From: a virus
Lineage: Duplodnaviria > Caudoviricetes
DNA: 57,042 nucleotides
IMG/VR virus record: IMGVR_UViG_3300046804_003910
Location: 1 to 57,042 of that record
Reading direction: 5' to 3' (one strand)
In this document: positions 1 through 50,200 of the stretch, in pieces
How the letters are laid out: the number at the start of each line of letters is the position of its first letter
Position numbering within the stretch: the stretch's first letter is position 1
The notes under the pieces: model-generated
Databases searched by the model: none
What the model saw: the letters and a program-made list of their open reading frames with translations, nothing else
What the model was told of the DNA's origin: nothing
Translations under genes and position numbers: made by a program

Positions 1-13
1 TAGTGTACGGATG

Positions 14-343
14 TCACCCCTCTGCGAAGGGGGAGACTTCCTCACCGCAGGCGAGGATCGCCGCGTACTGTTCGGCCAGAGCCGCCTTGCGTTCGGGCGA
101 ACCCGGCTTGCCAACCTTCACGATCATCAGATCGTCACCCCCCTTGTAGCGGGGATCGGCCTTTTCGGCCTTGGTCTTGCCAGCACGACGGAGAGCCTTG
201 CGATTGAACTTCAGCACCTTCTCACTACGGATCGGGCCGTACACACCATCGGCCAGGGTCGGCTGGTGGCGGATTGCGATGCCGAGAAAGCACATGCGAG
301 CCTGTCGCTTTGCATCTTCGATGATTTGGAACTTGGTGGCCAT
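14..343 (-). CDS. Hypothetical basic early protein (109 aa, start trimmed to MATKFQ)
   Basis: ORF with an AGAGGA RBS before ATG 343 and a TTGCAT-N16-TATAAT promoter at 374-401 (minus strand). Confidence 0.7.
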   Translation of the reverse strand: MATKFQIIEDAKRQARMCFLGIAIRHQPTLADGVYGPIRSEKVLKFNRKALRRAGKTKAEKADPRYKGGDDLMIVKVGKPGSPERKAALAEQYAAILACGEEVSPFAEG

Positions 344-465
344 TGTCGTTTTCCTCTTGGTGATGATGAATGGATTATACAGGCCATAAATGCAAATGCA
401 ATCGCAAAATCCGGATTTTTCTGTCAAGAAACTTTGACACAAAAGCCTAGCATTTTATGCTACTT

Positions 466-481
466 TGGCACAGCGTTTGCT
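466..481 (+). promoter_or_regulatory. sigma54 (-24/-12) consensus site
   Basis: TGGCAC-AGCGT-TTGCT matches TGGCAC-N5-TTGCW. Confidence 0.45.
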
Positions 482-488
482 TATATGT

Positions 489-570
489 CGTAAGTTGTTG
501 CCTCATAAGACTTTACATCAAACGCCGCCGCCACCGCTCGACGTAAAGTCTTGCGGCTATTGGGTTTACG
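489..570. repeat. 82-bp double-palindrome element, copy 1
   Basis: CGTAAGTTGTT-N7-AAGACTTTACA, 24-bp linker, CGTAAAGTCTT-N7-TTGGGTTTACG. Confidence 0.9.
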
Positions 571-781
571 TTGCGTGAATGAAAACCTTATCACTCGTGG
601 TCTTATTCGTGATGGTCACAATCCAGTTACGACCACTACCATCCTCACGCATGATACCATTCACAAGGCCGGCATAAACCCTACCCTTCGGGTCGATCAC
701 GCTAGTATACTTGCCAGCAATCATGGATGCGAAGATAGTATTGAGGCTGTTCTGTCGATTAGCGTAGGCGGTTCCGAACAT
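566..781 (-). CDS. Small hypothetical protein (71 aa)
   Basis: ORF with an AAGGA RBS and a TTGACA-N17-TATATT promoter at 811-839; its stop overlaps repeat copy 1. Confidence 0.75.
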   Translation of the reverse strand: MFGTAYANRQNSLNTIFASMIAGKYTSVIDPKGRVYAGLVNGIMREDGSGRNWIVTITNKTTSDKVFIHAT

Positions 782-844
782 TTTCTTTTCCTTGTGGTGA
801 TGATGAATGAAATATATCAGAATCTTTTTACCTTGTCAACCCCT

Positions 845-1066
845 CTATCGAAGGGTAATCAAACCATTGAAGTGCGAGAAGGTAAGGGTAAGAGTCTTTC
901 CAGGGTACTTCTGGTCGATATACGCTTGGGCGGTACTCTTACGATTATCCGTAGCGGCAACGTGCTGCACAACGCTACCACTCTCGTCCATAACCTTCCA
1001 CACCTTTTTCTGTACGATCTTAGGAAGGCTACCGATGAAGTCGTTGATATGAGTTGCTTTTTCCAT
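845..1066 (-). CDS. Small hypothetical protein (73 aa, start MEKATH)
   Basis: Purine-rich leader; TTGACC-N17-TAGACT promoter at 1092-1120. Confidence 0.7.
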   Translation of the reverse strand: MEKATHINDFIGSLPKIVQKKVWKVMDESGSVVQHVAATDNRKSTAQAYIDQKYPGKTLTLTFSHFNGLITLR

Positions 1067-1137
1067 TGTCTTTCTCTCTTTCTTTCTTTCTAGTCTATCA
1101 TCGGTTTTCAGGTAGGTCAATACTGTACAAAAGTTTC

Positions 1138-1383
1138 TCAGTAGTAGCCGCAATTCTGAGACAATCCGCGAATTTGTGGCGAGATTTTCCACAGCGGAGG
1201 AAGCACGTTGCTTTCGTGAATCCGCCAGAGTTTCTGGCCGTCGCTTTCGACCACGCTCACTTCTACCAGAATATAGTTGCCCATACTCGACTTCTCGTGA
1301 CCACGCACAGTACCAAGTCGCGTACCGATCTCGCAGTTCCGACGAAACCGAACACTATCACCGATATTGAAAGTGTTTTCCAT
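1138..1383 (-). CDS. Small KOW/SH3-like protein
   Basis: FNIGDSVRF...GTV motif; AGGAG RBS; TTGACG-N16-TATAAT promoter at 1418-1445. Confidence 0.65.
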   Translation of the reverse strand: MENTFNIGDSVRFRRNCEIGTRLGTVRGHEKSSMGNYILVEVSVVESDGQKLWRIHESNVLPPLWKISPQIRGLSQNCGYY

Positions 1384-1476
1384 CGCTGTCTCTCCTGGGG
1401 TTACTTCTTATATCGACATTATACCATGGTATGCTTGAGCGTCAAGCAAAAAGTTTCCTTAAAACATCGTAAGGTT

Positions 1477-1558
1477 CGTAAGTTGTTGATATATAAGAGT
1501 TTACGTCAAACGCGGGCGCCCCGGCTCGACGTAAAGTCTTTAGCCTTAAGGAGTTGCG
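1477..1558. repeat. 82-bp double-palindrome element, copy 2
   Basis: CGTAAGTTGTT-GATATAT-AAGAGTTTACG / TCAAACGCGGGCGCCCCGGCTCGA / CGTAAAGTCTT-TAGCCTT-AAGGAGTTGCG. Confidence 0.92.
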
Positions 1559-1813
1559 TCAAACCCCCTCGAAATAGTGGTCGGGGCTCGGCGGCTGACC
1601 GAGGTGATCGTTCCACTCTCCCCAAGTCTTACACTTGACCATCGTGCCGGGATGCGCCCACGGCAGGGGTGACGGCGAGTGTCGGACGATTGGGTGATCG
1701 GTCGAAATCGAATCACGGCGACCTTCCTTCCACTCGGTGAAGATGGCGACCGCTTCAGCGGTCAGAGTGCGGATACCGGCGGTGGTGGTCACGGTGATGG
1801 CGTTCATGGTCAT
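1559..1813 (-). CDS. Small hypothetical protein
   Basis: TTGACA-N17-TAGAAT promoter at 1844-1872 argues for a start at 1813 or 1807; its stop abuts repeat copy 2. Confidence 0.65.
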   Translation of the reverse strand: MTMNAITVTTTAGIRTLTAEAVAIFTEWKEGRRDSISTDHPIVRHSPSPLPWAHPGTMVKCKTWGEWNDHLGQPPSPDHYFEGV

Positions 1814-1900
1814 GCCCTTGGCGTTGGTGGTTGTGATAAGCATATTCTACAAAGTATTATCGGCATTGTCAAGTGGCTTTCTTGAAAAAATCTTTTTTGC

Positions 1901-1982
1901 TGTAACTTGTTGTGGCGTAAGAGTTTACGTCAAACGCGGGCGCCCCGGCTCGACGTAAAGTCTTTAGCCGTAAGGGTTTAGA
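1901..1982. repeat. 82-bp double-palindrome element, copy 3
   Basis: TGTAACTTGTT-N7-AAGAGTTTACG, same 24-bp GC linker as copy 2, CGTAAAGTCTT-N7-AAGGGTTTAGA. Confidence 0.92.
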
Positions 1983-2165
1983 TCAGGCCACAGCATCCAT
2001 CGCAGCCATCTTTTCCACAGCCCCACGATAGAGGGGGTAGAACTCGTCCAGTGGACAGTTGTTCACGACGAGGGAGCCGTCGATGTAGAGGCAGTACGTA
2101 TTCGGCACTTCGACCGAAACGGTCCAGACGAGCGGGCGAGGATCGTTGATGTTCTTCGGGTTCAT
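1983..2165 (-). CDS. Small hypothetical protein (60 aa, start MNPKN)
   Basis: TTGACA-N17-TAAGAT promoter at 2191-2219; its stop abuts repeat copy 3. Confidence 0.7.
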   Translation of the reverse strand: MNPKNINDPRPLVWTVSVEVPNTYCLYIDGSLVVNNCPLDEFYPLYRGAVEKMAAMDAVA

Positions 2166-2237
2166 TCTGTTCTCTCTTTCTTGTGATGGTATCTTATCAA
2201 GCCTTTTGTGGTTTGTCAATCCCCCTTAAGGGTGAGC

Positions 2238-2399
2238 CTAGTTGCTCATCCACGATGCTACGGTGGAGAGATCATCGGCCATTTCGACCGTCGATCCATC
2301 AACCAGACGAACAGTCCATACGTTGCCCTCATCAAAGTGCCAGCACACGATCACGCCAGAAACACCGCCAACCACAACCTTGTCACCAATCTCGAACAT
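2238..2399 (-). CDS. Small KOW/SH3-like protein (53 aa, not in ORF track)
   Basis: Manual translation MFEIGDKVVVGGVSGVIVCWHFDEGNVWTVRLVDGSTVEM...; GAGGAG RBS; TTGACA-N16-TATAAT promoter at 2430-2457. Confidence 0.75.
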   Translation of the reverse strand: MFEIGDKVVVGGVSGVIVCWHFDEGNVWTVRLVDGSTVEMADDLSTVASWMSN

Positions 2400-2488
2400 C
2401 TTGCGTTCTCCTCTTTCTCTTATATCGACATTATACCATATCCATCTTGAGTGTCAACAAAAAAGTTTCCTTACAATACCGTAAGGTT

Positions 2489-2570
2489 CGCAAACCATTG
2501 TGGGATAAGAGTTTACGAAAAACGCGGGCGCCCCGGCTCGACGTAAAGTCTTTAGCACTAAGGGTTTAGG
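2489..2570. repeat. 82-bp double-palindrome element, copy 4
   Basis: CGCAAACCATT-N7-AAGAGTTTACG, 24-bp GC linker, CGTAAAGTCTT-N7-AAGGGTTTAGG. Confidence 0.92.
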
Positions 2571-2571
2571 T

Positions 2572-2856
2572 TCAACCGATCCTTTCGGCCATAACCTTTC
2601 CAGCCTTGAACCGCACCACCCGACGCTCTCCGATCATCACGGTTTCACCCGTGCGTGGATTGCGAGCCTTGCGAGGAGCGGTCACCTTCACGGTGAACAC
2701 GCCGAAGTTTCGCAGTTCGATCCGGCCGGTCGTGGCGAGAGTTTCGATCATGCTATCAAGCGTAGCCTGCACGATCTCGCGGGCCTGATCGCCCGTTACG
2801 CCAACCTTCTCCGCGATCCCCTCAACCATGCTTCGCTTCGTTCCAACCATTTTCAT
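2572..2856 (-). CDS. HU/IHF family DNA-binding protein
   Basis: Signature IELRNFGVFTVK...RKARNPRTGETV.I..RRVVRFKAGK; TTGACA-N17-TAGAAT promoter at 2879-2907. Confidence 0.95.
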   Translation of the reverse strand: MKMVGTKRSMVEGIAEKVGVTGDQAREIVQATLDSMIETLATTGRIELRNFGVFTVKVTAPRKARNPRTGETVMIGERRVVRFKAGKVMAERIG

Positions 2857-2923
2857 CGTCTCCAGTGGTGATGTCGCTATTCTACCGAAAGTTTTTCAGC
2901 CTGTCAATCCCCCCTATCGGGGA

Positions 2924-3139
2924 TCATGAAACCCCCATCCAAGCCGCGTTCTCGACGCAGTAATCGTAGAACATATCGTTCAGCACAGCCTCGAAGTTGT
3001 TTTCCGTAAGCCTGCGACGATCACCCGTGAAATCACACTCCGCGAACAACCTACCATCGGGCGTATGCACCAACACCACATGATACGTCTCGCTACCCCA
3101 AATAGCCTTGAGAACGTTATTCACTTTGTTCGTATCCAT
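2924..3139 (-). CDS. Small hypothetical protein (71 aa)
   Basis: AAGGAG RBS; TTGAAA-N16-TATAAT promoter at 3168-3195. Confidence 0.75.
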   Translation of the reverse strand: MDTNKVNNVLKAIWGSETYHVVLVHTPDGRLFAECDFTGDRRRLTENNFEAVLNDMFYDYCVENAAWMGVS

Positions 3140-3227
3140 CTCTTTCTCCTTTTCTCTTTATATCGACATTATACCATTCATTCTTAAACTTTCAAGAGAA
3201 AAACTGCCTTAAAACTTCGTAAGGTTC

Positions 3228-3309
3228 CGTAAGTCCTTATTCTACAAGACTTTGGCACAGATCGTGCGGATCAAACTCGTCGTAAAGTCTTACGCCACAA
3301 CACTTTACA
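3228..3309. repeat. 82-bp double-palindrome element, copy 5 (divergent linker)
   Basis: CGTAAGTCCTT-N7-AAGACTTTGGC, 24-bp linker of different sequence, CGTAAAGTCTT-N7-AACACTTTACA. Confidence 0.85.
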
Positions 3310-3456
3310 TCAAGAGGGGGTTTTTTCGTTTCCTACAAGGGCTGGCGTCCATGACAAAACCTCGCCGGTGGTCTAAACATAATAAGGACCATCCAATATA
3401 ATTGGCCAGTTTTCCCCTATATATTTCTCATTCTAAAATAATTCTTAATATTGACA

Positions 3457-3753
3457 CTAGTAACCATAAGAATATCTGACACCACGATTCCAGCATCCAT
3501 TATGAGAATTCCAAAAACGTGGTCGTTCATTTACAATTGGCCAGTTTCCCCATATAACATTATTATTCTGCACCACTATTGGTTGTTGTACCACAGGAAC
3601 ATACTGAACACTAATTACTGGTTGCACAGGATAGTAAACTACCACAGGATATTGTACCACTACGGGTTGTGGCTGATAATATACAACAGCCCCAACATCT
3701 TGAGCACAACAACATCCACACATTACCATAAATAAAAATAAACTTTTGATCAT
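3457..3753 (-). CDS. Secreted-type Val/Tyr/Pro/Gln-rich small protein
   Basis: N-terminal signal peptide (MIKSLFLFMVMCGCCCAQ), low-complexity PVVVQY repeats, AAGGAG RBS. Confidence 0.65.
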   Translation of the reverse strand: MIKSLFLFMVMCGCCCAQDVGAVVYYQPQPVVVQYPVVVYYPVQPVISVQYVPVVQQPIVVQNNNVIWGNWPIVNERPRFWNSHNGCWNRGVRYSYGY

Positions 3754-3771
3754 TTTAATATCTCCTTAAAT

Positions 3772-3810
3772 AAAAATGGCCACGACTAACATTATATTAA
3801 TCGTGACCAT
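3772..3810 (-). terminator. Probable intrinsic terminator downstream of the HTH gene
   Basis: Imperfect stem ATGGCCACGACTAA / TTAATCGTGACCAT followed by a T-run on the minus strand. Confidence 0.5.
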
Positions 3811-3841
3811 GTTATTGTAATATTACTTTTTTTAGTAAATA

Positions 3842-4075
3842 TCAACTAATAGCAGATTCAATATTAGCCGAATTCCCCACTGGTTTCACCTTTCGTGGAC
3901 GACCCCTACTCTTCTTAAGAGCAAGCTTTCGTCTTTGACGTCTCACCATTGCTGTACTAATATTTTGTCCTGTCATTTTACTCAGAGCAACCCCTAAACT
4001 TTCATCACATAATAGTGTATGGTTTTGTTGAATATAATCAAGTTCGCTCTGAGACCATTTTTTATAATTAGCCAT
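3842..4075 (-). CDS. HTH DNA-binding protein with an AT-hook-like motif
   Basis: KKWSQSELDYI Myb/HTH-like start; RGRPRK motif; GAGG RBS. Confidence 0.7.
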   Translation of the reverse strand: MANYKKWSQSELDYIQQNHTLLCDESLGVALSKMTGQNISTAMVRRQRRKLALKKSRGRPRKVKPVGNSANIESAIS

Positions 4076-4156
4076 TTTTCACCTCGTTTATTATTGACAA
4101 ATCCTTCCTGCAACATACTATAATAGGTGTTGACAAGTTTCTAGCAAGGAATTTTT

Positions 4157-4315
4157 ATGATCAATTTAAATACTTTTAATCCAGACTCTATTGTTGATTC
4201 CGTCTTATCCATTAAAGCTTCAGGATCAATCAATGATGAAGCTATTAATGATTTGCTATTAGAGAACGGAAAAACCATAGCAGAATTACTACATGACCAA
4301 AGCGAAACAGAATAA
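4157..4315 (+). CDS. Small acidic hypothetical protein (52 aa, not in ORF track)
   Basis: AAGGA RBS; open frame MINLNTFNPD...QSETE*; overlaps the start of the sigma gene. Confidence 0.5.
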   Translation: MINLNTFNPDSIVDSVLSIKASGSINDEAINDLLLENGKTIAELLHDQSETE

Positions 4316-5729: not shown

Positions 5730-6725
5730 ATGACAAAGATCGCAGCAATTACGGGCATAACAGGACAGGACGGAAGCTATCTTGCCGAGAATCTTTTAAA
5801 CAGAGGATACGGCGTGGTAGGATTATATCGTCGTAGTAGTAGTTCTAATTTTACTAGAATAAAACATATACTAAAACATCCTCGATTATTACTAGAAGAA
5901 TTTGATTTAACAGACCCTAGTGATTGTACTGACGTTATAACAAAACATCACCCAAATGAGTTCTACAATCTCGCTGCTCAAAGTCATGTTGCTACCAGCT
6001 TCAAACAGCCAACAACAACATTTGAGATTAATTCTGTTGGAGTAACAAATTTATTAGAAAATATCAGAAAGTTTAGTCAAACCACACGATTTTATCAAGC
6101 CAGCACCAGCGAAATGTTTGGCTGTAACTATACTGAAAAGGATGGAAAAAAGTACCAAAATGAAGAAACCACCTTATTGCCCCAAAGTCCTTACGCAGTA
6201 TCTAAGTTAGCTAGTCATCGCATGGTACAAATATATCGCGAAGCATACGGATTATATGCTTGTAGCGGCATACTATTTAACCACGAAAGTCCACGACGCG
6301 GTGAAAACTTTGTAACGCGCAAAATTACTCGGTATATTGGACGCTTGGTAAATAATAAGCTAGAACCTGATGAAAAACTCAAATTAGGTAATATTAAAGC
6401 GGTACGAGATTGGGGTCATGCTAAAGATTATGTAGAAGCTATGAGACGAATGTTGGCGGGCGGAATCGCTGATGATTTTGTTATTAGTACCGGTCACTCA
6501 TATACTGTGGAGCAATTTTTAGTAGCAGCTTTTGGTTTAATTGATAAAAATTATCAAGACTATTTTGAGATTGATCCTGCTCTTTATCGACCAGCAGAAG
6601 TAGAATATTTACACGGTGATTGCTCTAAAGCTCAACGAGTATTAAAGTGGCAACCTCAAATAGCTTTCGAAGATCTTGTTAAAGATATGGTAACCTCAGA
6701 TATTCAATTGTTCCAAAATGATTAG
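5730..6725 (+). CDS. gmd: GDP-mannose 4,6-dehydratase
   Basis: ITGITGQDGSYLAE, YNLAAQSHV, FYQASTSE, SPYAVSK, LFNHESPRRGENFVTRKI, RDWGHAKDYV. Confidence 0.97.
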   Translation: MTKIAAITGITGQDGSYLAENLLNRGYGVVGLYRRSSSSNFTRIKHILKHPRLLLEEFDLTDPSDCTDVITKHHPNEFYNLAAQSHVATSFKQPTTTFEINSVGVTNLLENIRKFSQTTRFYQASTSEMFGCNYTEKDGKKYQNEETTLLPQSPYAVSKLASHRMVQIYREAYGLYACSGILFNHESPRRGENFVTRKITRYIGRLVNNKLEPDEKLKLGNIKAVRDWGHAKDYVEAMRRMLAGGIADDFVISTGHSYTVEQFLVAAFGLIDKNYQDYFEIDPALYRPAEVEYLHGDCSKAQRVLKWQPQIAFEDLVKDMVTSDIQLFQND

Positions 6726-35289: not shown

Positions 35290-38200
35290 ATGGCACAAGG
35301 ATTTAATCTTACGGCCCAGCTTAATTTAGTTGGACCAACAAATGTGAGACAAATAGCATCTCAGATCAGGAGAGATCTTGGTACTGTTGATGCAACTGTA
35401 AACTTTAAATTAGATCCGGCAGCAACAAAAAATGTTACAGCTTTAAATACGGCGCTCAAACAACTAAATACAACACTAAATGCAACTAATACATCTGCAA
35501 CTTCTGCAGCCAATGCTATAAAAAATCTGAGCAGCAGCATTAATTCTGTAAAAGCTAATAACTTGTCCAAACAACTTAATAGTGCAGCAAAAGCCACTAG
35601 CAATCTTAATAAGTCCAACAATAAGATCCAAAGCTCTATTGCTGGTGCTAGTAATGAAATGCAAGAATTCGGCAAGCAAGCTGGACTTGCTGTTAGAAGA
35701 TTTACGGCATTTGCTACTGTCACTAGTGTTATATATGGATTAACAAATAGTATTAATAGAGGAGTTCAAGCATTTATTGATTATGATAAAGAATTGGTTA
35801 GATTACAACAGGTTACAGGTCAGTCTTTAAAAGGTTTATCTTCACTACAATCTGCTATTACAAATTTAGCAACATCTCTAGGAGTAGGATCAAAAGAATT
35901 AACCACAGTTGCTGTTACTTTGGCTCAGGCTGGATTAAGCGCTAAGGATACAGAGAAATCTTTGAAGGCTTTAGCATTAAGTAGTTTAGCTCCATCATTT
36001 GACAATATGAATGAAACGGTCGAAGGTAGTATTGCTTTAATGAGACAGTTCGGAATAGGTGCTGTAGATTTGGAAAAAGCGCTAGGTTCTGTAAATGCTG
36101 TTGCTGCAAAGTTTGCTGTAGAAGCTAGTGATATTATCACAGCTATACAGCGTACCGGTGGTGTGTTTGCAACAGCCAGTAGAGGAGTCAGCGAAGGAAC
36201 AGATGCGTTAAACGAATTTATAGCAGTATTTACTAGCGTAAGAGCAACAACTCGTGAAAGTGCAGAAACTATTGCTACCGGTTTAAGAACTATTTTTACA
36301 AGAATACAACGTGGAGATACTATTGATGCACTGAAAGAATTTGGAGTTAATTTAACAGACGCTCAAGGAAAATTCGTTGGAGCATACAAAGCTGTTGAGT
36401 TATTAAGTAAAGGATTAAATTCTATAGATCCTAGAGATCTAAAATTCTCACAGATAGTTGAAGAACTTGGTGGATTTCGACAAATTGGAAAAGTTATCCC
36501 ATTAATTCAACAGTTCGCCACTGCACAACAAGCCTTAGCAGTAGCCCAACAAGGACAAGGCTCTTTAGCCGAGGACGCTGCTACAGGACAAAAAAGCTTA
36601 GCAAATCAAATATCAAAAGTTAAAGAACAATTTTTTGCCCTATTTAGAGAGATTGGTCAAAGTCAAGGATTCCAAACTTTAGCCAAAGGAGCACTTAATT
36701 TAGCAAGCGCATTAATAAAAATCCTTGATGCTACTAAATCTTTATTACCAGCATTAAGTGTGGTATTAGCTTTTAAAGGATCAAAAGCATTAACGGAATT
36801 TGTTGGTGGTTTGGGCAGAGGTTTTAGAAGAGGTCCTGATAATAAAGCTGGAGCTGGTAAAAACGAACCATTTGCTCGCGGAGGTGTTGTTAAAAAGTTT
36901 GCCAGAGGAGGTGTTGTTCCTGGTAGCGGTAATAGAGATACTGTTCCGGCAATGTTAACCCCAGGAGAGTTTGTTATACGAAAAAAGGCTGTTGAAACTA
37001 TTGGTGCTGATAATCTTCATAATATGAATAAGTATGGAACTGGCGGAAGTATAAGAAAAGGAACATCAAATAGAAGAAGAAAATTTGCCAAGGGTGGTAA
37101 AGCAGCTAAATTAGCTAGCATAGATGGTGACTTTAGGGCGGTTGATGGAGATACATTTGATGCTACGGTGACTCCAACAGGAGATCAGTTCACAGCAAGA
37201 TTTAGAGTTGCTGAATTTGATACGTATGAAGGAAGAGGAAAAGCTAGTTTAGTTTCTGCGGATAAAGCAAAAAAAATAATGTCATTAAATAAAGGTAAAC
37301 CTCCGTTAGAAGAATCTTCTGGAAGATATAAGGTTCCAAAAGACTATAAAGTAACTAAAAATGACACAGCAGCAACGGCGGCACAAGAAGCAAAAAAAGA
37401 ACTACAAAGTAAACTGGATCAATTCGTAGGACCAGAAGCAGCTAAAAAAACAGTTCCTGGCGGAGGCGGTGTTGGTAGATATTTAGCTAAAACTGGATTC
37501 TCTATGCCAGATAGTTTGACAACAGGAAGAAAATGGGATGAAAAAGGAAAAGAACTTCTTAATGTTGGAGGTGTTGTTAAAAAATTTATGGCGGGTGGAA
37601 AAGCTCCAGAAGTTGTATTCGGAACAGGACAAACAAAATTTCCCAAGCGTATAACAAATGCCTATGCTAAAGAACTACAGAAAAAACTAGATTCAGAAAG
37701 AGTAAATAATGCTTTCGATCCTTATCCGACCAATGAAAGAATAACAATCGATCCTGCAGAAGTACAACAAAAATTTCAGGGCGAACCTTTTGATCGTAAA
37801 AGATTTTTAAGCTTATTTAATACTAAAGTTAGTCGCAATGAATTAATAGGTAATCTATCTGATTTTGCTAAGTTCATAGGACTACCGGGAGAGGATTTAA
37901 GTAAAATTTTACCACAAACTATAGATTTTGGCGGAGAATTACAGCGATATGGTAATCGTGGAACATTTAGTAGAGATCCTTTTAGTACTCAAGGATATGA
38001 TACTAAGGGTCTTGAAGCTTATGGCTTTACAGCTGCTGATGAACAAGATTTATTCGGATATCAAAAATTAATAGATGAAAAAACTAAAGAAATCAAAAAA
38101 ATAATAAAAACTCCCATAGAAACATTTGAGGATGGATCATTTAGTTATGATAGTGCGGCTTTTCTTAAGGCTACGAGCGAAAAAGATGAATTAAGTAAAA

Positions 38201-41200
38201 AATTATCCGCAGTTATGGATAAAAGGGCGGTTGCTCGTAAAGCTCTTATGGAACAAAAAAAGAGTATATTAGCATCAACAGGACGCGGGTTTGTTTCATT
38301 AGCCAGTAATGCTTTTGAACGTAATCAACCAAAAAATGTATTATATCATGAATTAACACACCAACTATTTAATTCTTTACGAGCTAAATCAGAAGACAGT
38401 TTTGCCAAATATAAAGAAAGGGTATCTCAATTATTCGGTGGAGATAATGACGATTTAGCAGACGCATTTGATGCGTTGGGTGGAAGTTATAACAGCGCGG
38501 ATGTTGTTTATGGACGCTCTTATAAGAATGGTTTACTTGATACTGTTTTACAAAATTTAAGACAAGGGACTATTAACTCAGGGGGAAGAAGCGCAAATCC
38601 TGAACTATCTAAAGAAGCATACTCTATGTGGGTAGAGTCTGGACAAAAAAAGAATGCTCGCGAATATCGTCCAATAAATCCAAAAATTAATGAGATACTA
38701 TTAAAAGGCGGACAGAGACAAGACACAATAGATAAAGTAGAAGATTATGGTAAAGAAGAATTTTTAACTACACTTATTCAGAATGCTCCTAAATTAGATT
38801 CTAATATGCAAGGAATTTTAGATTCCACTTTAAATGAATTATTAGGAAATGCTGGAATACAAAGACAAACCTACGCTGGCGGCGGCAAGGTTATGAGAAA
38901 CCTAGGATATATTGATTTTGATGTAATTAATGATCCAGCTAATGCTAAAACTGTTGAAAAAGCTATGAAAGAAGCTGGTGTTGATGGACCAAGAAAATAT
39001 ACTGAATATTTAATGGATTTAGCTACTAAGGCCAGAAAAAATACTAGTATTCAAAAATTAACAGCATTATATGGTGTGGCTGGTGCTGGAAAAAGCAGTA
39101 TCGCAATGGGTCGTGGAGCAAACGATATAGGAACATTAAGACAAACTAATCGTTTTCCAATATTAACGCCAGAAGATATATCTAAAGCTTCTGAGGTTAT
39201 GCTATTGAGTAGTACTGTCTCTCAAGATAAATTAGAAGGTATGTTTAAAGAAGCTGATAAAATTTATGGATTATCAACCACAACACAAGAAGAAAAAGAT
39301 AGAGTTCGTAAACAAAGAACAATGAGAGATGTTAGTGGTATAGGTCTATTTGGCAGAGAGGCTGGTAGTACCACAGGCGCTCCAACTGATACCGCAAAAG
39401 AAGAAGCTCTTTTAATGGATAGATTTGGAGATAAAACAACTATTTTGGGACGAGGAGATTCTAATAGACTACGCAGAAAAAAAGGAAATGAATTAGTAGA
39501 AATAACAAAGAAAAAACTAGCCTTTACATGGGGAGGATTTGCTCCAACAACAGCAGGACACGAATCTATTATGGAAGCAGCAAAAGCTGCTGGTATACCT
39601 TATGAAGATTTTATAGCTTTGGTTGGAGCTAATGAAGGTATAGATGCTAAAAGCTATAGAACAGCAGTATTTGATCAAGACTTCAGATTAGCATTAGCAA
39701 AAGCGGGATTTGGATCAAAGGGTGCCTCTGTATTACCAAAAGCTTTCGGAGATATGAGTGTTCCATTAGCTTTTGACATGGGAGAGAAGGGTGGCCGTAG
39801 ACAGATTACACTAGCTGGTGAAGGAAGTATGGCTTTTGTTGCAGATAAAACAGAGCAACAAATGGAGAAATATAAAAAAGCAGGATACGGAGTTACTAAT
39901 CTAGAAAGAACGGGTGGAATTAGTGGAACCCAAGTTAGAGACCTATTACTCAATGGAGATTTAGAAGGTCTTCAGAAAATTGTTTCTCCTGGAGTATTTT
40001 CATTATTAAAAGATAATATTTCTCAATTACAAAACAGAGCTAATGTATTACCAGTATTAATAGAACAAGCAGAAGCTGCATATAAGCAAGAAGTAGCCGC
40101 TATAGACGAGCAACTAGCAGCCACAGGAATAACTCGCGCAAATAATAAAAAAGCAGAGACAGACCCAGAGTATGCCGAGCAATTAAAACTTTATCAGTCT
40201 TTAAAAGAGAAAAAGAAAAAATTAGAAACTAAAAAATCATTTGAGCCGTATCGTCTGCTTAGACAATTGGCAGACAGTGATCCTGCCAAATATGGATTAA
40301 GATTTGATACAGTTTCTTCTGCCGTTTCTGGTCCGTCTTCTGCTATGCAGCAGGCTATTCTAGAAAAGGTGGCAAAACAAACTGCTGTTAAAAAATCTTC
40401 TGGCATATTACCAGCAGAAGGAAGAGAAATCTTGAAACGATTTGGGGCCGACAGATTACCAACAGATCCTATGTTTGGTCCGTTCGCAGGAAAAACAGTA
40501 CGAGATACGGCTGAAGGTGGAAAATTAAAATATTGGAATTCCGCTTTTAGGCCAGAGACAAAAGCAGATAAGCTAGCCTATTATACTGCAACAAGAGACT
40601 ACTTAATAGATAAATTTAACGAATCTCAAGGTTCTCAAAGAGCAACAGCATTAAAAGATACTACAAATGCTGTTTTATCATCAGCACAATTAGGTCTAGT
40701 AGGATTAAATCCACTAGGATACACCGGATTATTAGGTCCAGAAACTTGGAATCTTGGTACAGACCCATCCGGCCAAGAAAGATCAATAGACGCCTCCATA
40801 GTTCAAAGAGGATTACCAAGACAGTATCAAAATGTTATTGATTACCTGAGCGGAGAAACAGAGCAACTAGTCGGCGGGGCTGCTAAATTGCTTGGTATTA
40901 ATCCTAAAAAATTAACTCAAAAACAAAGAGAAACATTAGGTCAAGGTAATATAGAAGGAGCATTATTAGAACAAATTTTTGGATCAGCAGATGCTACCAT
41001 ACTAGATGACGCTTTAAGAACTCGTCCAATAGATTTTCCAAGTGGTATCGGTCCTAAAGCAGCATCAATATTTGGCATTGATCCTGATATTCCAACAGAA
41101 GTTAAAAGAACAATAGATAGCGGTAGTAGGGCTAAGGCTGTTGAAGAATTTCAAAGATATTTTAGACAACAATATGGTATTCCTGATCCAGACAAACAAA

Positions 41201-44200
41201 AAGTTCAAGCCTTAGCTGACGGAGGAGCTGTTAAATTATATCACGGATCCAATACTGGAATAGATGATAATGTTTTAAAGAACTTTAAAGAAAAAGGAGC
41301 ACTGAGCAATATTGCTACAGGATATGGCCAAGGGGCCGGATTCTATTTATATACAGAGAAGAATAAAGCTGAACAACAAGCAAAAATGAGAGTTAATGGT
41401 GGAAGTGGTTTTACCCTTGCTAGCGGCGACAGATCAGGAAAGCCAATGGTCCTTAGTTTTAATGAAGTATTAGATCCTAAAACTTTTGATCTTGATTATG
41501 AATTACAAAAAAAATTAGTAGTACAATGGATTCATGATAATTATGATCTTTTAAAAGATAAATATGCTCCTTCAGAAACTCAAACAGGATTAAAAGATAA
41601 ATTTGATAAAAATCCAGATGCTGGAATGATGTCTGTTGGTATACGAGTTCAAGAAGGATCTCAAACCTTAAAGTCTGAAGATGGAGCAGAGTTTGAGGTA
41701 AAAGGAGGAGCTAGAAAATCTATCTATGCTGGGAGCGAAGGAGATGTTAGAGAAGGAGCTTTGCTTGGACAGCTTATGTCCAGAATACAAGCCGGTGATC
41801 CTGATCTAGTACAACAGTTTGAGAGTGGTTTATTTAAACATCCTCTAGGATTAGCACTAAAATATGTTGGATCAACGCCACTTAAGCCAACCAACATAGA
41901 AACTTTTGCAACAGGAGGGCGAGCAGGAATATCTCCAAAAGATACAGTTCCCGCTCTTTTAACTCCTGGCGAATTTGTTATAAATAAACAAGCAGCACAA
42001 AAAATTGGTTACGGTAAATTAAATCAATTAAATAAAGCAGATAAAGTTAAAGGATATAATAAAGGAGGAGCTGTAGGAGCTGTACAAAGATTAGCATTGG
42101 GGGGATCTGTCGATCCAAATTCAATTATTAGACAACTTGGCGATTGGATAATGGCAACATCCAAAGAGAACCAAATAACAAAATTTGATACTAGACCATC
42201 AAATATTAGCAGATCAACCACGGCCACCTCCAAAGACGTTAATGAGGATTTAGAATCGATTGTTAAAAGTCTTAATGATTTAGGTTATAGTGCCGCGGAA
42301 TCTGCTACATTAATTAAAAAACTTAGAAATACTAGTGAGATTAGTTACAAAGAATTAGAAAAAGCTTTATCTAAAGATATTGCTAATCTAAAAGCCTTAG
42401 GTGCTGGTTTTGATACTATTATTCAAGCTGAAACGGCTCTAGCTAAGATTCGCGAAAAAGGACAATCTCAAGTTGATTTAAAGAAAAATTTAGAAGGAGC
42501 ATTTGGTCAAAGAGGTAATGTATCAGATAAATTATTAGGAGGAAAACTAAATATCGGAGACATCGGAGGAGGTTCCGCAGCGGCACAAACAGCCATAGAA
42601 AGACAAGCAGAATATCTTATAAAGCAACGAACATCTAGTTTAAAATCTGCCGGAAAAGAAGTAGACTTGGCTAAGATAACAGAACAAGCATATGTAAAAG
42701 CGACTTCTAAAGTATCTGGAATAGATAGTAAAGCATTTAAGAGTTATGGAATAAGTGGCAAAGATATTAAAAATTATATAGATGAATCAAAGAAAAATGC
42801 AAAAACTCTTCAAGAATTAGATCAAGCATTATTATCTCAAAAATTAGCAGAATTAAGAAACTCAGCAGCATACTCTGCCGCATCAAGATCAGAAAAAGCA
42901 AGGCTTGAAAAAGATCTAAGAGCAGAAACAAGAAGAGAAATTTCTGTTCGACGATCATTAATTAACGATCTAGCAAAAAGAACAGGATCAAAAGGCGTTG
43001 GCGCTACAGACATGATGGACTTCAATAATAGTCCTATTCTTAAAGCATTAAAATCTATCACATTGCCAGGGGCACTGATGGGAGCTTCTACTGCTGCTGG
43101 ATTAATAGGAGGACAAGGAGCCCTAATAGGCAAAGCAATGTATGGAGCAAAAGATGATGCATCACAACTACAGGCGGCCAAAACAGCCGTAGCTGTAGAA
43201 AATGCAGGAGTAACTATAAGTACAGGATTAGCGACAGCCGCACAAATTATACAAACTGTTCCTGGCAAAGCTGGATTAATAGCAGCAGCAGTTGTTGCAA
43301 TAGGTAGCGCTATTTATGCCGCCGCTGATTGGTTTGGTGATTTTAGCGGAAAGCAACAAGAAGCAGCTATACAAAAACAAAAAGAGTTAATGGCCACCCG
43401 AACAGAGGCCGCTCAAAGAAATCTTGATTTGGCATCTACTAATCTGGATAGAGATCCAAATAATATTGGATTTATTAACGCTTTCACTGATGCGCTAAAT
43501 AATATTAACACTATCAATGCAACAAATGCAGTCATAGATGTTAAGACTGCTGAATTAGACTTTAAGATGAATGCTCCAGTAGATGAAAAAGCATTATGGG
43601 CAGGGTCAGAAAATGTAGACATGGGATTCTTAGGACTAAACAAATTAGGAGATACACTAGGAAGATGGGCTTCTCAATTCTTGCCAGAATGGACAGGCAT
43701 GGGTGCTCCAAAACAAAAATTTGGTGCTCCAGAAATGGCAAAAGTTAGTGCTCAAATAGCTTCGCAGAATCAAGGAGCTGCTAATAAAGCATTACAAACA
43801 GTAACTCAGGCGATGATGGAACAAAATGTTGGGCGAGAATCTATTCTAACAGGAGAGAAATATCAGTCTCAAAGAACAGCTGTTATGATGGGTGATTTAG
43901 ATGGCGTTAAAATGTTTAATGCTATGTTGGTAGAAGCAAAAAACAGAGCAGGAGGAAGGGAACTTAGCGAAGAGGAAGTAATAGCTGTACAAAAAAGAGC
44001 AACAGAAGAATACATTAAAAATGGAAGTGCTGTTCTAGAATCAACTATAAAAAGTGCTGAAGTTGCTAAAGCTATGGAAGAAGCAGATAGGGCTGGTAGG
44101 AAATTAGCTACAAGCTTAAATAAAATGATTGATGCTATAGATCAATCTATTAATAGAATTCAAGCAGAATCTCAGGAACGAGCAAAAGCCAGTAAGCAGA

Positions 44201-47200
44201 TGATCAAAGCAATAGGAGGAGAAGGAGGTCCAGCATCGTATACTAATCGCGCTCGCTCTATTATAGATAATCCTATGGCATATAGTGAAGATGAGTATAA
44301 AGGAGCAATGAAGCAAGTTGGTGATATGGTAGGAGGAGAACAAGGCAGAAATCTTACAGGATTAGTTGGCATCGGCGCAAATATGTCAGATGCTATGTAC
44401 GCTGGTATTGTTAACAAATTAGGGGGCAAAGCTAGCACAAGCAAAGAAGAAGCAGCGAAAGAAGCCATAGCCACAGGAACAGAATACATTAATAATTTGG
44501 ATGTTAGTGATGATGTTAAAAAAGTTTTAATAGAAAAACTAACAGCAAATGTTAATCAAATTGCTGAAAAAATGGGAGAGGCATCATTTGCTAATAATCC
44601 ACAACAAGCTGTTGATCAATTTGCTGCTGCTGTTAGAGATAGTTCTTCTGCGCTTGGAGATAATTTAGAGTCTAAGGCAAAAGAAACAGCAAAAGCACTA
44701 TTAGCTCTAAAAGATAATGCATTAAATGAGTTTGCTCAAGGATTACAAGAAAGCTCAGAATATCTCAGGCAAGCTGCAAGACTTCGTATTAAAGCAGATA
44801 AAATAGCTTATGATGCTAATAATGATCTTAGAGAGATAACAACAGGAGTTGGAGAAAGCTATGGCGAAGCGAAAGGTCAATTAATGAAAGAGGTTGGCTC
44901 TCTGACCGGAGGAGCTACTGATCCGGCTGCAATTGGTAAAATGATCGAGGATGAGGCAGGAAAAAATAGAGCTTTGAACCAAAAATTACAAGATGCTCAA
45001 AATTCAGGAGATGTTGACGCTGCTTCTAAGTTAATAAGAGAAATTCAAGAGAGTAATGATAAATTATATAACTACAATGACGCTCTAGACAAATTAGCAG
45101 ATAGTACAGAACTTTACCAAAAAGCTCTTGATGAAGCTAGAAATATTGCTGGACTACAAGATCAACGTAAAGGATTTATTGAAAAACTATTAACTAATAC
45201 CCCTGAAGAAGCCGACAAGCTAAATCAATCATTTATAAGATTACAAAGAAATTTATCAGGAGGATTTAATAATCCTCAAAATCAAAGAGACGCTCGTAAA
45301 GCATTTAATGAAACATATTTTAAAACAGGAAATGTAAGGGAGGCTGCTAGAGCAGGAAATACTGTCCTAGCTAATCAACGTAAAGAAACACTAGCTCTGC
45401 AACAAGATCCTGGTTTTAGAGCTATGAGAGAATTGAATTTAAGAAACCAAGGCGCTTCTGAAGCTGATATAAAGGCTATGTTTGCCAAAGAAGAAGCAAA
45501 TTTAATGAGGCAAATGGCGGTAGAGAGCGGTTATGCTAATAATCCTGCTATTATGCAAGCTATAAACTCTATTGAAAATCGTAATGTCGATCCTGCATTC
45601 CAAAAAGCATCTCAACAGGTACTAGAAGCTGCAGGATTACGCAAAGCAGCCACAGAAGAACAAGCTCGCGTTAAAGAAACCCAAGCTTTGATTGCTAATG
45701 AAACCGCTACTATAAATCTAACAAATGCAGTTAATAATTTAAGCATTGTCATGCAAGATGCTTTTGCTAGAAATATGAGGGTGGAAGGCGGAAGGATTCC
45801 TGGACCAGCAGGAGGAAAAGTTCCTTTAAATCTGGGAGTTGGAGCGCCTGCTGCTCCTAAATCTAAGGGTGGATTAATTTATGCTGCTGATGGTACATAT
45901 GTTAACTTTGAGCCAAAAGGAACAGATACAATACCAGCAATGTTGTCTAAGGGAGAATATGTTGTTAACGCCAAGTCTACTAAAAAGAATCTTTCTCTTT
46001 TAGAGGCTATTAATGGTGGCAAAGTTAATGGCATGAGTAAAGGAGGAATCGTTTATTTATCAACGGGTGGGGAACCAGTAAAACCGGCATCTCCAAAATT
46101 CAAACCAGACAAAGGACCTAGAAAACCAAATGAAGTTGAAGCAGATACTGTTCCACTATTAGTTATTAAAAATAGAGACTATCCAGGATCTTTGACTCCG
46201 GAAGAGCAAGCAAGAGTAAATAGCTATGTCGGATTTACAAACTTTACATCAAATATGCCAGGACAAGTATGGTATGTAGATCCTAAAACAGGACAACATC
46301 GTGTCAAAGATGCTCCAAAGTCTAGAGATTTATATGGATGGGATTTTCATGATGCGTCTGACCCAGCATGGATCAAGAAGAAAGAAACATTATTTAAACA
46401 AGCAGAAGCCCGAGCAGAGTCACAATTAACGCAATTAACTCTACAAAGAGGATTCATGGGTAAGGGTAGTGGTCCCAACAAAGGCAATAATAGACTCGTA
46501 ACACCAGCAGCAGAACCTCTGAGTAGAATGAGTAATATTATTCCTCAAGAAGACCTCAATAAAATGGCAAGTATTCAAAGAGGAATTAATGACGGAACTT
46601 ATCAACCAACAGTCAAAGATCAAGATTTCTTGGACAGCATGGAGGCCAAAGTTAAAGAACAAATAACTCCTTTTAATACTATGGCTGGTGACTATGGTCA
46701 GACAATGAATTATATTACTGATTTAAGATTAAAAGTAAGCGATATCAGTATTAAAGCGGGCAAAGATGAAAATTCAAAAATTGTTCCTATTAACCTAACA
46801 GATCCTCGTTTAGATTTTGCTAGAGAACGTATTCGTAAATTAAAAGAAGAAGGAAGAGAAAAAGAGATTCCAGCATATATTGATGGCCTAAAGAAAAAAA
46901 TGGGCTATGGAAGAGATATAAATGCTCCATCTAGCGAGATTGATCCTAAATTTAAAGGAGCAAATTCATATTCCGCTTCTTGGAGACAAAATAGATCAGT
47001 ATTATTTGGAAAAGCAGACTACGAGTGGTTGGACAGGGTAAAAGAAGGAGATCCAGAAGCAACAGCTAAGTTTTTAGATCCTCAGAACAATGCTACTGCA
47101 AACATAGGCCCTGCACCAACAGCACCCAAAGTGAGTGATTTTAAAGGGTCTGGTGGAGCGGATGCATATAGAGAGGCTCAAACAAAATATAAAGCAGACT

Positions 47201-50200
47201 TGGCAAGATGGGAAAGTGGGAAAGCTGCTGTTGATAGTAGATCAGGAACTAATAAACCAGGAACAATGAAATATAGCGAAGAAGAATTACAGGCCATGAG
47301 AGAATATTTAAAGTATCATGGCGGTCCATTAACCGAGCATTATCCAAGTAACTATGATACTTATCGCCTAAATAATGATCCATCGGTCTTAGGCAGAAGA
47401 TTATATCTTATGAGTCGCATGACGAGCGGTGGAATGACAGTTAGTGAAAGAAAAGAATGGGAATTATTACGATATAATAATCCAGAAGGTATCAGAAAAT
47501 GGAGAAAAGATATTGAAGAATGGAGACAAACTCCGCAAGCAAAAGCTCTTGATCCAAGAAGTGGAGCAGGAAAAAAATACCCATACTCTATTCCAGATGA
47601 AAGTCAGGCGCAAAAAGAATCTAGACAAAGACAACTAGAAAATAGAGATAGAGCAACAACTAATGGAAACAAATTTACTATCGAAGGCGGTAGATCAACT
47701 CAAAATTCTGCTCCTTTGGTTCTGCCAGAGCCAAAAGAAGGATTTCCTATAACTTTACCGAATATTCCAGAAAATAAAGCACAACAAGAGCAGCCAGAAG
47801 TTAAAACAAATACCGGCATTGTACCTAGTGTTATACCACAAAAACCATTTAGTGGTAAAGTTTGGAGATTAACTACCGTTGGAAATAATGGAGAAATTAC
47901 TACTAGAAATTATAGATCAAAAGAAGCATACTTAAACGCAAAGAAAAAACAAGCAGAAGCCAAGGCCAACGGTGGATTAATATATGCTTCATTAGGTCAG
48001 CACATTGATTTTGCTCCAAAAGGCACGGACACTATTCCTGCTATGTTAACTCCTGGTGAGTTTGTTGTTAATGCTAGGGCAACCAAGGAGAACTTGCCAT
48101 TATTGCATGCTATTAACGATGGCAAAACTAATGGGATGAGTAAAGGAGGAATTGTTTATCTCGCAACAGGAGGAGATCCGTCAAAACCACAAGGACCAAA
48201 ACCACCAGCCACTAAGACAAAATCAAAAGCTCCTACAAAGGCAGATGTACAAAAATTAGAAAGAGCCCGAACAGATGCTCAACAAACATCATGGATGATG
48301 AGTGAGGCTGCTGGAGTAGCACCAGATGAGGTTGTAAATAGATCAGCCGCTAGTTGGACAGAATCACAAGTCGGTTATGGTAAATGGCAAACTATGAGCG
48401 AGCAGCAAAGACAAGAAGAAATAGATAAAAATAAACCAGTATTTCAAAGGAAGTGGGACTCATACAATGCAAGACAAAATGCTGCAATGGAGCAGTCGGC
48501 TAGAGAAGCAGGGTATGAAAATGCTAAAAATGATCCTAATGCTGGTATAGTTGGAGCTAATTTTTTCAATACTGAAAAAACAAGATCAATGACCGAGTTT
48601 GATAAGGCTCAAGCGGATTATGAGAAGGCAAGAGATGCTGCGATAGCCGCACAAGAGCCTATGCCAAATTCTTCTGCTCCTCCAATGATAGGACAATCGG
48701 CCTACCCTAATCAAGCTGCTCGCGACCAAGCAGTACAACAAAAAGCAGAAGAACTGGCTAGAAAAGAAGGAATTACTCATCCTCCAGTAACAACAGGAGA
48801 AGATGGAGAAACTGTAATTGGTGCTGTGCCAAGGTTTGAAGCTTTACCACCTTTACAAAAGGCTTTTATTGCATTACATAAAGATAACGCTAGAAAATCT
48901 AATACTGAAACCAGTGTAACACAAGGAAAAGCAGAAATAGAACATGATATTCAGACAATGAGATCGTATGTTGGTGCTGTCGATGATAAAGGCAATCCTT
49001 TAGTAAAACCAGAGGACGCTGCTAAAGTTAATGCAATATTAGATAAATATGATCCGAACAATCCAACAGCTTATGCTGAAGAGTTAGATCAAGCTTTACA
49101 AAATAATGAACCAGGATCCAGCGGAAGAACATTTAATGATATTCGAACCAAGGCATTAGAGAGAAATTTAGACACTACATATCAAGAAGCTGTTCAGTCT
49201 AAAATACCAGTAGCAGAACAACATATAGCAGGAGATGCTAAAGCAGAAGCAGAAGCACAAAGATTAATGCCTGGACAAACAATGGCCCCAACGACGAAAG
49301 GCGGGAATAATCCAACAACATGGTTATATGAGCCGGCTGGAACTATGAAACCAGTAGATCTAGATCCTAAAACCAAAAAGGCGGCAGAAGAAGCTGCTAA
49401 TACTGTTTTTGCCCAAGCGGAATATGGAGCATCTGGACAACTAAAAGCCAGAACAGACGCTCTGGCAAAAGTAAATAGTCCAGATTTTGATAAACTACCT
49501 AAAGACGAACAAGAAAAAATTCGAAAAGATGCTATAGCAAATCCACCATCGGAGGTAACAAGGGCAGTAGAAAAAGAAATAAAAGAGAATATGGTAAGAG
49601 AATACTCGCAAAAAGAGTACGATAAAGCACGAGCTGCTGGTAAAAGCGAAGAAGAAGCAAATAAGGCAAGAGCAAAAGTAGAGAGAGATTTACAACAAAA
49701 TAATACCGCAACATATTCTGGTTTTGATAGCGAATATAAACTTAGAACACAACCTAGTCATGTATACAAACCAGGAACAGTTGGAGAACAATATAAAAAA
49801 ACCTATGATAATATTTTAAAAAGACAAGTAGATGAAGCTCAACAACAGGTCGCAACTATGGCAGCTCAAGGGGAGAATGCCACCTTTGAATTCCAAGGAC
49901 AACAAATTCCTGTACAAAACTTGTCAACAAAAAACTCAATGGGTCGTGATACTAGTGGAGGAGCATCTAATGCTCGTTTAAGACTAGATAGATATAACAC
50001 ATTAACACAAACTCAAGCAAATTTGGATGCTACTATTAATAAGGCCAGGAGAGATGCTGCTGACGCGGAAAGAGAAATTGGATCACGAACAATCGGCGAA
50101 AAAGTTGGCGAATCACTAGTTGGATTGGGTTCTGAATTACAAGGAAACTTTACTTATCAAAGCGGGGCTGAAAAAGCTAAAGCTAAAGCAGATGCGGCAT

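Follow-up and report, generated by a model that had tools for sequence, protein, structure and literature searches.

The DNA analysed here, positions 1 to 57,042 of the IMG/VR virus record IMGVR_UViG_3300046804_003910 (Duplodnaviria; Caudoviricetes), is referred to as the window, and its first 3330 nucleotides carry an array of small early genes in which an 82-bp unit is repeated five times. We consider, with a probability of roughly 0.6, that these units are the conserved core of composite cassettes, in each of which a gene end is joined to the region upstream of the next promoter, and that their repetition feeds homologous recombination. The original prediction had described the array as integron-like, that is, as a recombinase-driven system for shuffling early-gene cassettes. 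The idea of cassette shuffling is right; however, the integron analogy is wrong in its mechanism. The anatomy, the surroundings and the evolutionary behaviour of the array instead match those of the promoter-early stem-loop (PeSL) cassettes of T4-type phages.

The comparison set consisted of seven related viral contigs including the window, two of which are 100% complete according to CheckV; these complete genomes are G005, with 175 kb and 16 units, and G006, with 159 kb and 19 units. All five units in the window were confirmed at the positions given in Table 1. A covariance model built on sequence only from 18 copies, a check that had been proposed together with the original prediction, identified exactly those five places in the 57-kb window, and 12, 8 and 24 places in the first three relatives, 12 in the fourth, and 16 and 19 in the complete genomes. 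In all seven contigs, the places are confined to a single array of small early genes, which is richer in guanine and cytosine (GC) and extends over 13 to 22 kb, and every unit has the orientation of the genes. The geometry of 11-7-11/24/11-7-11 nucleotides, in which two pairs of 11-nt boxes enclose 7-nt centres on both sides of a 24-nt spacer, proved to be fixed. The 61 copies from five contigs align in 102 columns without gaps, and the 16 and 19 further copies of the two complete genomes have identical spacing. Because the places found using a fixed-spacing regular expression are the same as those found using the indel-tolerant model in all seven contigs, except for one false extra in G005, no indel is present within the 82 bp in about 95 copies. 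The mean pairwise identity between copies is only 64%.

Read on the sense strand, the unit consists of CCTAAAGCCTT, 7 nt and AAGACTTTACG, followed by 24 nt that are mostly GC-rich, and then CGTAAACTCTT, 7 nt and AAsnACTTAsG. The residues A4, A5, T10 and T11 are invariant in every box, and AAA and T8 are invariant in both inner boxes. The ends of the unit are CSTAAA...TTASG, which agrees with the earlier remark that canonical GTTRRRY ends are absent. The motif CGTAAAGTCTT alone, with up to two mismatches, showed no enrichment across the window (23 found against 16.7 expected), which indicates that the signal lies in the clustered and phased arrangement. The single-unit core TAAR-N3-TT-N7-AA-N3-YTTA has all 10 of its window matches within 1–3330, and all 40 of its matches in the 159-kb genome G006 are inside the array, where shuffling gives an expectation of about 0.5 to 0.6 outside. 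Since this 11-7-11 core never lies outside the arrays of G006 and the window, it corresponds neither to a genome-wide operator nor to a promoter of the sigma-like protein.

Unit 5, the first in the direction of transcription, is of a terminal type, and a unit of this type also opens the array in all six relatives (G001 to G006) and, in degenerate form, in the distant relative L023. In L023 and L024, more distant relatives whose sigma-like protein is 58 to 61% identical, the covariance model detected no full unit; degenerate or single 11-7-11 forms were read there by eye. A scan of IMG/VR using a degenerate gapped pattern gave 101 loci, and the 80 rows listed span at least 29 viral contigs. No Rfam family matches the units.

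The units are packed tightly between genes. The stop codons at 566, 1559, 1983 and 2572 abut or overlap units in the window, as had been noticed, and over the 61 copies a stop that closes a frame of at least 40 codons is found at −2 to 0 or at +5 in 43, compared to 168 of 2000 random array positions; the +5 class corresponds to a TAA inside the first arm of the unit. On the other side, the next −35 box is 18–19 nt downstream in 16 of 60 copies and 26–32 nt downstream in 28, so that 44 of 60 fall within 18–32 nt. The adjacency of the stop codon and the fixed distance to the promoter indicate that the unit is placed closely between a gene end and the A/T-rich tract upstream of the next promoter. 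In the region 1–4200, 25 promoter-like sites were found, compared to 6.6 ± 2.4 in shuffled sequences. The eight best sites on the minus strand each precede a gene, and eight of the nine array genes have a near-consensus sigma-70 promoter. A module of a small hairpin and a T run (repeat family D4) recurs after units 2, 4 and 5, and three of the four intergenic regions of the window without a unit carry, by eye, a short C/G hairpin at the −35 box.

Two further motifs accompany these promoters. The sequence GTCGATA(T/A)AA directly after the −10 box, or CGATAAT in the spacer, is present in many early promoters of all arrays (for example, at 1406–1427, 2418–2439 and 3156–3177 in the window), and could be a second control site or a signature of the initiation region. 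Motifs of the form TGGCAC-N5-TTGC(T/G), which we take to resemble sigma-54 −24/−12 promoters, are located at 466–481 (+) beside unit 1 and at 3252–3267 (+) inside unit 5, and are kept in relatives (L004, about 1950–1970), once in the opposite orientation.

The array has been rearranged among the relatives in units of genes. Comparison of the five arrays as series of gene families shows colinear distal parts, with insertions and deletions of whole genes, and heavily re-paired proximal parts. Across units, the families f9, f5 and f10 each have three to four different downstream partners. Downstream of family f2, each of the five arrays has a different gene, and f4 and f11 are followed by two different genes each, in all cases at junctions that lack a unit; such junctions carry only a promoter, usually together with a short C/G hairpin. 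Where a gene adjacency is conserved in at least two arrays, the presence or absence of the unit is conserved likewise, and the behaviour of the unit is therefore not that of an element with a mobility of its own. Copies with mosaic structure follow their neighbours, that is, a common upstream gene is accompanied by a common left part, and a common downstream gene by a common right part and promoter.

The points at which such copies diverge were located using a two-state analysis anchored on the unit. In 33 pairs that share the upstream flank, the change-points were at 14, 31, 44–46, 60, 65–68, 81–83, 90, 107, 118 and 129, and in 19 pairs that share the downstream flank, they were at −13 to +3, 56–57, 69, 72 and 76–78. 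The change-points thus occupy at least 12 positions between −13 and +129, and are not confined to the 7-nt centres. In contigs of four freshwater runs from four studies, joints or loose ends were found at the core edges 1493, 1540, 1919, 1926, 1964 and 3281, as well as at repeats of the promoter and leader (362 to 825, and 2439 to 3199); these joints fit the expectation for a population of alternative arrangements, in which strain variants and circles look the same in contigs. The gene-order comparison proposed with the original prediction thus shows gain, loss and re-pairing with breakpoints in or beside the units. The part of that prediction in which units bound exchangeable modules is borne out, and the part that calls for a dedicated site-specific recombinase is not.

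The original prediction proposed that a single strand folds into outer arms, a 7-nt bubble and inner arms, as in attC sites. The inner arms are indeed nearly complementary (12 of 13 positions in copies 2 to 4) with a constant C-C mismatch, which is present in 13 of 18 copies. However, pairing in the proposed fold is 73.6%, compared to 74.2 ± 0.9% in column shuffles, and the fold is not upheld. Two separate 11-7-11 hairpins gave a similar result (70.5% paired, and 71.4% in shuffles), and RNAalifold returned 0 pairs on 18 and on 49 copies for either strand. The arms are complementary because all four follow one consensus, and the pairing itself is not selected. The arms conserve sequence rather than structure, which is the opposite of attC. 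Two other candidates were rejected: a terminator consisting of the central GC hairpin and the U run had z = −0.1, and for an outer-arm closing helix followed by a T run, the pair 1–82 showed no association (Fisher p = 0.64). Pair 3–80 of the outer arms alone covaries (p = 5e-4), which largely reflects orthologous copies, and a mutual-information scan was dominated by the relatedness of the copies.

An alternative hairpin is found in the 5′ part of the unit, where the 3′ end of box 1 and the first 7-nt spacer pair with the 3′ end of box 2 and the first bases of the 24-nt spacer, leaving the loop TAAGACTT. For the stem formed by columns 17–27 with 36–46, 67.3% of the cells are paired in the 61 copies, compared to 62.0 ± 1.0% in shuffles, and 46 cells are doubly changed, compared to 27.9 ± 4.5; none of 500 shuffles reached either value. 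The alignment shows several independent compensatory changes in the stem, namely GCCGCA/TGCGGC, GCTGCA/TGCAGC, GGTGCA/TGCATC, GTCGCA/TGCGAC and GCGACGT/ACGTTGC. The folding z scores, computed against mononucleotide shuffles, indicate a preference for the sense strand. For the 5′ half (columns 11–50) of the 61 copies, the mean z is −2.83, and stability is higher on the sense strand in 42 copies and on the antisense strand in 17 (Wilcoxon p = 2e-4); the 36 copies of G005 and G006 replicate this (mean z −1.98; 25 and 11 copies; p = 0.008). The 3′ half has a mean z of +0.2 in the 61 copies (27 and 33 copies; p = 0.51) and +0.3 in the 36 copies (19 and 15 copies; p = 0.83). The predicted stem varies from copy to copy; what the predictions have in common is a hairpin of the sense strand within the 5′ two-thirds. 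The 46-nt conserved core, which comprises the inner arms and the GC-rich spacer, is the longest stretch of homology between copies and is also the predicted hairpin of window copies 1 to 4.

In the reading that we favour, a cassette would consist, in order, of a stop codon, the 82-bp unit, an A/T-rich tract, a sigma-70-type promoter, a ribosome site and the next gene. The hairpin in the 5′ two-thirds of the unit would act on the transcript of the upstream gene, most likely as a terminator, an attenuator or a 3′ stabiliser. The 3′ third, which is conserved and unstructured, keeps a fixed distance to the next promoter and is inherited with it, would most likely be a protein-contact region or a promoter-upstream region. 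All copies have the same direction and share 40–160 nt of homology, and can therefore serve as substrates for homologous recombination; together with the repeated promoters and leaders, the units would be substrates of general recombination that adds, deletes and re-pairs single genes between relatives. The RecA-like system of the phage itself would probably perform this recombination. A RecA-like protein over the cut-off is encoded in both complete genomes, and in a scan of 95 of the 138 open reading frames (ORFs) of at least 100 aa in G006, which left out 31 late-module and 12 array-span ORFs, a PD-(D/E)XK nuclease, two single-stranded-DNA-binding proteins and an ERCC4-type nuclease were also found. 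The molecular function of the unit, whether terminator, operator or RNA signal, as well as the functions of the hairpin and the 3′ boxes and the agency of RecA-type recombination, are what we infer from these patterns.

Several observations weigh against this reading. The stem occurs in two registers, the second of which is visible at a slide of +2; window copies 1 to 4 are instead predicted to form the inner-arm hairpin, with −25 to −34 kcal/mol; RNAalifold yields no consensus structure; and the shuffle controls leave the relatedness of the copies in place. An intrinsic-terminator scan flags none of the units, and the U run (columns 59–63) is about 12 nt beyond the covarying stem. As for the recombination, some of the pairs in the change-point analysis share one event, the freshwater contigs cannot separate strain variants from circles, and the cluster of change-points at 65–68 falls where the second 7-nt centre starts, which is also the end of the conserved core, so that a site-specific cut at this point is possible. 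Finally, the invariant loop AAGACTTT, the invariant A/T residues in the four boxes and the complete absence of indels exceed what a plain terminator needs, and point to a more specific recognition. Along this line, it is conceivable, although not probable, that the 82-bp unit is a dedicated recognition module, in which a hairpin with the AAGACTTT loop and three exactly spaced unstructured boxes are read by a phage or host factor on the sense strand as RNA or single-stranded DNA. Through such a factor, the transcription of each gene would be stopped or licensed individually, or recombination would be initiated at the unit; if so, the early regions of phages would possess a control or diversification element of a new kind. 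In either case, the rigid geometry and the invariant loop make the unit a tractable candidate for a specific RNA–protein or DNA–protein interaction.

The closest counterpart is the PeSL system (Arbiol et al. 2010; Comeau et al. 2014). In those reports (PMC2839356; PMC4122927), a PeSL motif begins at the stop codon that ends the preceding gene and comprises an AT-rich tract, an early promoter of sigma-70-like type and a stem-loop; the stem-loop was shown to terminate transcription, mini-circles were shown, and the motifs are concentrated in hyperplastic, ORFan-rich regions, where they mediate indels and replacements by recombination. The array of the window shares with PeSLs the composite motif of stop codon, stem-loop, AT-rich tract and strong sigma-70-like early promoter, the concentration in a hypervariable region of small ORFans in which indels and replacements at the motifs distinguish the relatives, and a recombinase encoded by the phage; short C/G hairpins of the classic kind likewise adjoin the −35 box in the window. 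A repeated early promoter with its AT-rich tract, a start at the stop codon with a stem-loop, and variation at the motifs are all present. In contrast, PeSL stem-loops are short, variable and located in or around the promoter, whereas here a rigid four-box unit of 82 bp with an invariant loop and spacing lies upstream of the A/T tract of the promoter, and the array is one GC-richer block of 13–22 kb in a siphovirus-like phage, not in a T4-type myovirus. Because the phage is not of the T4 type, and the unit is rigid and lies upstream of the promoter, we regard the system as PeSL-like but outside the described PeSL set. On this reading, the PeSL principle, by which repeated cassettes of terminator and promoter are at once substrates for recombination, would extend to large freshwater phages of an unrelated lineage, where it would operate on a large scale, with up to 24 units over 22 kb. 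It would help to explain the turnover of host-takeover and anti-defence ORFans in phages, and it guards against taking such arrays for integrons.

The likeness to integrons is real in the layout, since repeated imperfect palindromes with two box pairs around a variable centre lie directly behind cassette ORFs, as attC sites do, and bound exchangeable genes in both systems. An exchange of this type, or of the dif-module type, would require a tyrosine recombinase of the phage or a host Xer protein that acts at the 11-7-11 cores or on a folded single strand. A single-strand hairpin does exist, and some change-points are near the 7-nt centres (9 of 33 at 65–68, and 2 at 14). However, the absence of an integrase from the window, pointed out earlier, holds and extends further: six-frame searches of six of the seven records (all except G004, and including both complete genomes) gave no match to PF00589, and those of six records, two of them complete, gave none to PF00239, so that such a mechanism would be possible only via a host or otherwise unrecognised recombinase. 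There is no IntI, attI or Pc, and the cassettes have their own promoters, each resembling TTGACA-17-TATAAT. The attC sites conserve the fold, whereas the units conserve the sequence of the boxes, the four-arm fold corresponding to R and L boxes shows no covariation, and the ends are CSTAAA/TTASG instead of RYYYAAC/GTTRRRY. By eye, the arms showed no resemblance to the dif consensus, in which the XerC and XerD sites are arranged as 11-6-11. In addition, genes are re-paired no less often at junctions without a unit, exchange thus also occurs away from the units, and the change-points are scattered. With no IntI-type recombinase, no attC-like fold and promoters in every cassette, integron-like exchange is very unlikely. 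The notion that the units are selfish miniature elements inserted behind genes, comparable to miniature inverted-repeat transposable elements (MITEs) or repetitive extragenic palindromes (REPs), is extremely unlikely. The units are repeated, palindromic, intergenic and adjoin stop codons, as such elements would; however, conserved adjacencies are consistent for the unit with no empty or filled sites, the seven arrays showed no orthologous gene pairs that differ in a unit and carry target-site duplications, no copies are found beyond the array, and the orientation is single. No transposase over the cut-off was detected, in contrast to REPs and bacterial interspersed mosaic elements (BIMEs) with their REP-associated tyrosine transposases (RAYTs); in the seven records, PF01797 (Y1, or HUH, transposase) gave a single sub-threshold hit, in G005, which scores 14.5 bits where the cut-off is 23 and is located about 110 kb from the array.

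Binding by a protein or reading as RNA would account for other properties of the unit. As DNA operators, the units would be occupied at their four boxes by a phage or host protein, bound as two dimers 53 bp, or five helical turns, apart; the protein would control the adjacent early promoter or block the elongating polymerase depending on orientation, in the manner of mycobacteriophage stoperators; this is compatible with a role in recombination. The conservation of sequence rather than pairing in the arms, the lack of indels in about 95 copies, the 3′ half without a fold, the strictly single orientation, the two classes of −35 distance, 18–19 and 28–32 nt, which are about 10 bp apart, and the single 11-7-11 units read by eye in a more distant relative all agree with such a site. 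According to PMC9283540, the stoperators of cluster A mycobacteriophages are likewise repeated, oriented repressor sites that stop elongation, present in many copies in short intergenic spaces and in one orientation relative to transcription. On the other hand, stoperators are asymmetric sites of 13–14 bp, scattered genome-wide and bound by a known immunity repressor, whereas the unit is 82 bp long and restricted to the array, and no repressor for it was identified. The HU/IHF-like gene at 2572–2856 (−) was considered as the source of a general cognate binder and rejected; it is itself one of the shuffled cassettes and is present in only three of the seven contigs and in neither complete genome, so that it is cargo and not the cognate factor, and no cognate binding protein was identified. 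Moreover, the two distance classes follow the sequence families of the linker, and the phasing may thus be inherited, and the preference of the hairpin for the sense strand is not expected for a purely double-stranded site. We regard the operator as possible but unlikely. It is improbable that the units are RNA signals on the early transcripts, either RNase III-type processing sites or nut/put-like antitermination modules, in which a single-stranded CUCUUA box that recalls boxA would come after the conserved-loop hairpin. T7 RNase III sites and the boxB-boxA elements of rrn and lambda provide the layouts for this comparison. A sense-biased, covarying hairpin with a conserved loop, a start at the stop codon and a conserved unstructured AAACTCTT box after the hairpin are consistent with such a signal; however, the likeness to boxA amounts to five nucleotides, Rfam gave no match, promoters for each gene leave no obvious need for processing or antitermination, and no RNA run is among the listed sequencing runs that carry the stretch. 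The features of the array are listed in Table 1.

Table 1. Positions of the array, its units, genes and promoters, and of the tape-measure ORF in the window.
Feature	Position	Strand	Remarks
Early-gene array	1-3330	-	about 50% GC; nine small genes; proximal part of an array that is cut by the contig end
Unit 5	3228-3309	-	first in the transcription direction; terminal type; 24-nt spacer without GC richness
Unit 4	2489-2570	-	directly after the stop codon of the HU-like gene
Unit 3	1901-1982	-	
Unit 2	1477-1558	-	
Unit 1	489-570	-	TAA stop of the upstream gene (566-568) inside the first arm
46-nt conserved core (inner arms and GC-rich spacer)	1495-1540	-	equivalents at 507-552, 1919-1964, 2507-2552
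Array genes	14-343, 566-781, 845-1066, 1138-1383, 1559-1843	-	
Array genes	1983-2168, 2238-2399, 2572-2856, 2924-3139	-	
Sigma-70-type early promoter after unit 2	1418-1445	-	TTGACG-16-TATAAT
Equivalent promoters	3168-3195, 2879-2907, 2430-2457, 2191-2219, 1844-1872, 1092-1120, 811-839	-	
Small hairpin, then T run	2469-2486	-	between unit 4 and the -35 box; terminator-like site
Short C/G hairpin abutting the -35 box	2908-2923	-	intergenic region without a unit
Similar C/G hairpins	2220-2235, 840-855	-	
Tape-measure ORF	35290-52095	+	5601 aa; PF10145 minor-tail/tape-measure domain near the N-terminus, 6e-20

Among the nine array genes, only 2572–2856 has a family match (PF00216, HU/IHF-like, 1.2e-27), and Pfam matches were obtained for only a handful of the 13 window proteins and 49 array proteins of relatives that were scanned. 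As a fragment of an uncultured viral contig, the window has an estimated completeness of 38%, and its sequence was found in sequencing runs labelled as freshwater metagenomes. A search of 1–3400 against deposited phages using blastn gave no match, and the terminase is only about 24% identical to that of the closest deposited relatives, which are Bacillus siphoviruses. The phage is large, siphovirus-like and of freshwater, with a tape-measure gene, and is no T4-type myovirus. The AT-rich remainder of the window encodes a sigma-factor-like gene, the terminase, structural genes and the tape-measure protein. Since the tail length of siphoviruses scales with the length of the tape measure, a protein of 5601 aa would correspond to an exceptionally long tail, if this scaling applies. 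In G006, the array heads a minus-strand block that further on contains genes for replication and nucleotide metabolism; the late genes diverge from this block.

In its composition, the early-gene array forms an island, with a GC content of approximately 50% at 1–3330 compared to approximately 34% over the remaining window; in the relatives, the arrays have 37–51% GC and their flanks 30–35%. An assembly chimera at about 3330 was considered and ruled out because the identical junction is present in three related contigs. Adjoining the start of the array, a repeated AT-rich motif, ATTGGCCAGTTT(T)CCCC...TATA, is located at 3397–3434 and 3532–3569, with similar motifs in L004 and L006, and may be a promoter type for the sigma-like protein of the phage (4293–4952). 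The minus-strand gene at 3457–3753 encodes a protein of 98 aa with a signal- or lipobox-like N-terminus containing a cysteine run and a repetitive body rich in Q, P, V and Y, and a diverged counterpart is found at the equivalent place in relatives.

Other observations concern genes away from the array. Two proteins of G006 (L137, 5175–6479 and 7702–9207) have the N-terminal domain of the major tropism determinant (Mtd_N), which hints at a target of a diversity-generating retroelement in that genome. The region of G006 at 64–98 kb (L135, L136 and L137) contains at least nine glycosyltransferase genes with Pfam matches, which is unusually many, and the window carries a GDP-mannose dehydratase gene at 5730–6725; together, these genes suggest sugar modification of the DNA or of the cell surface.

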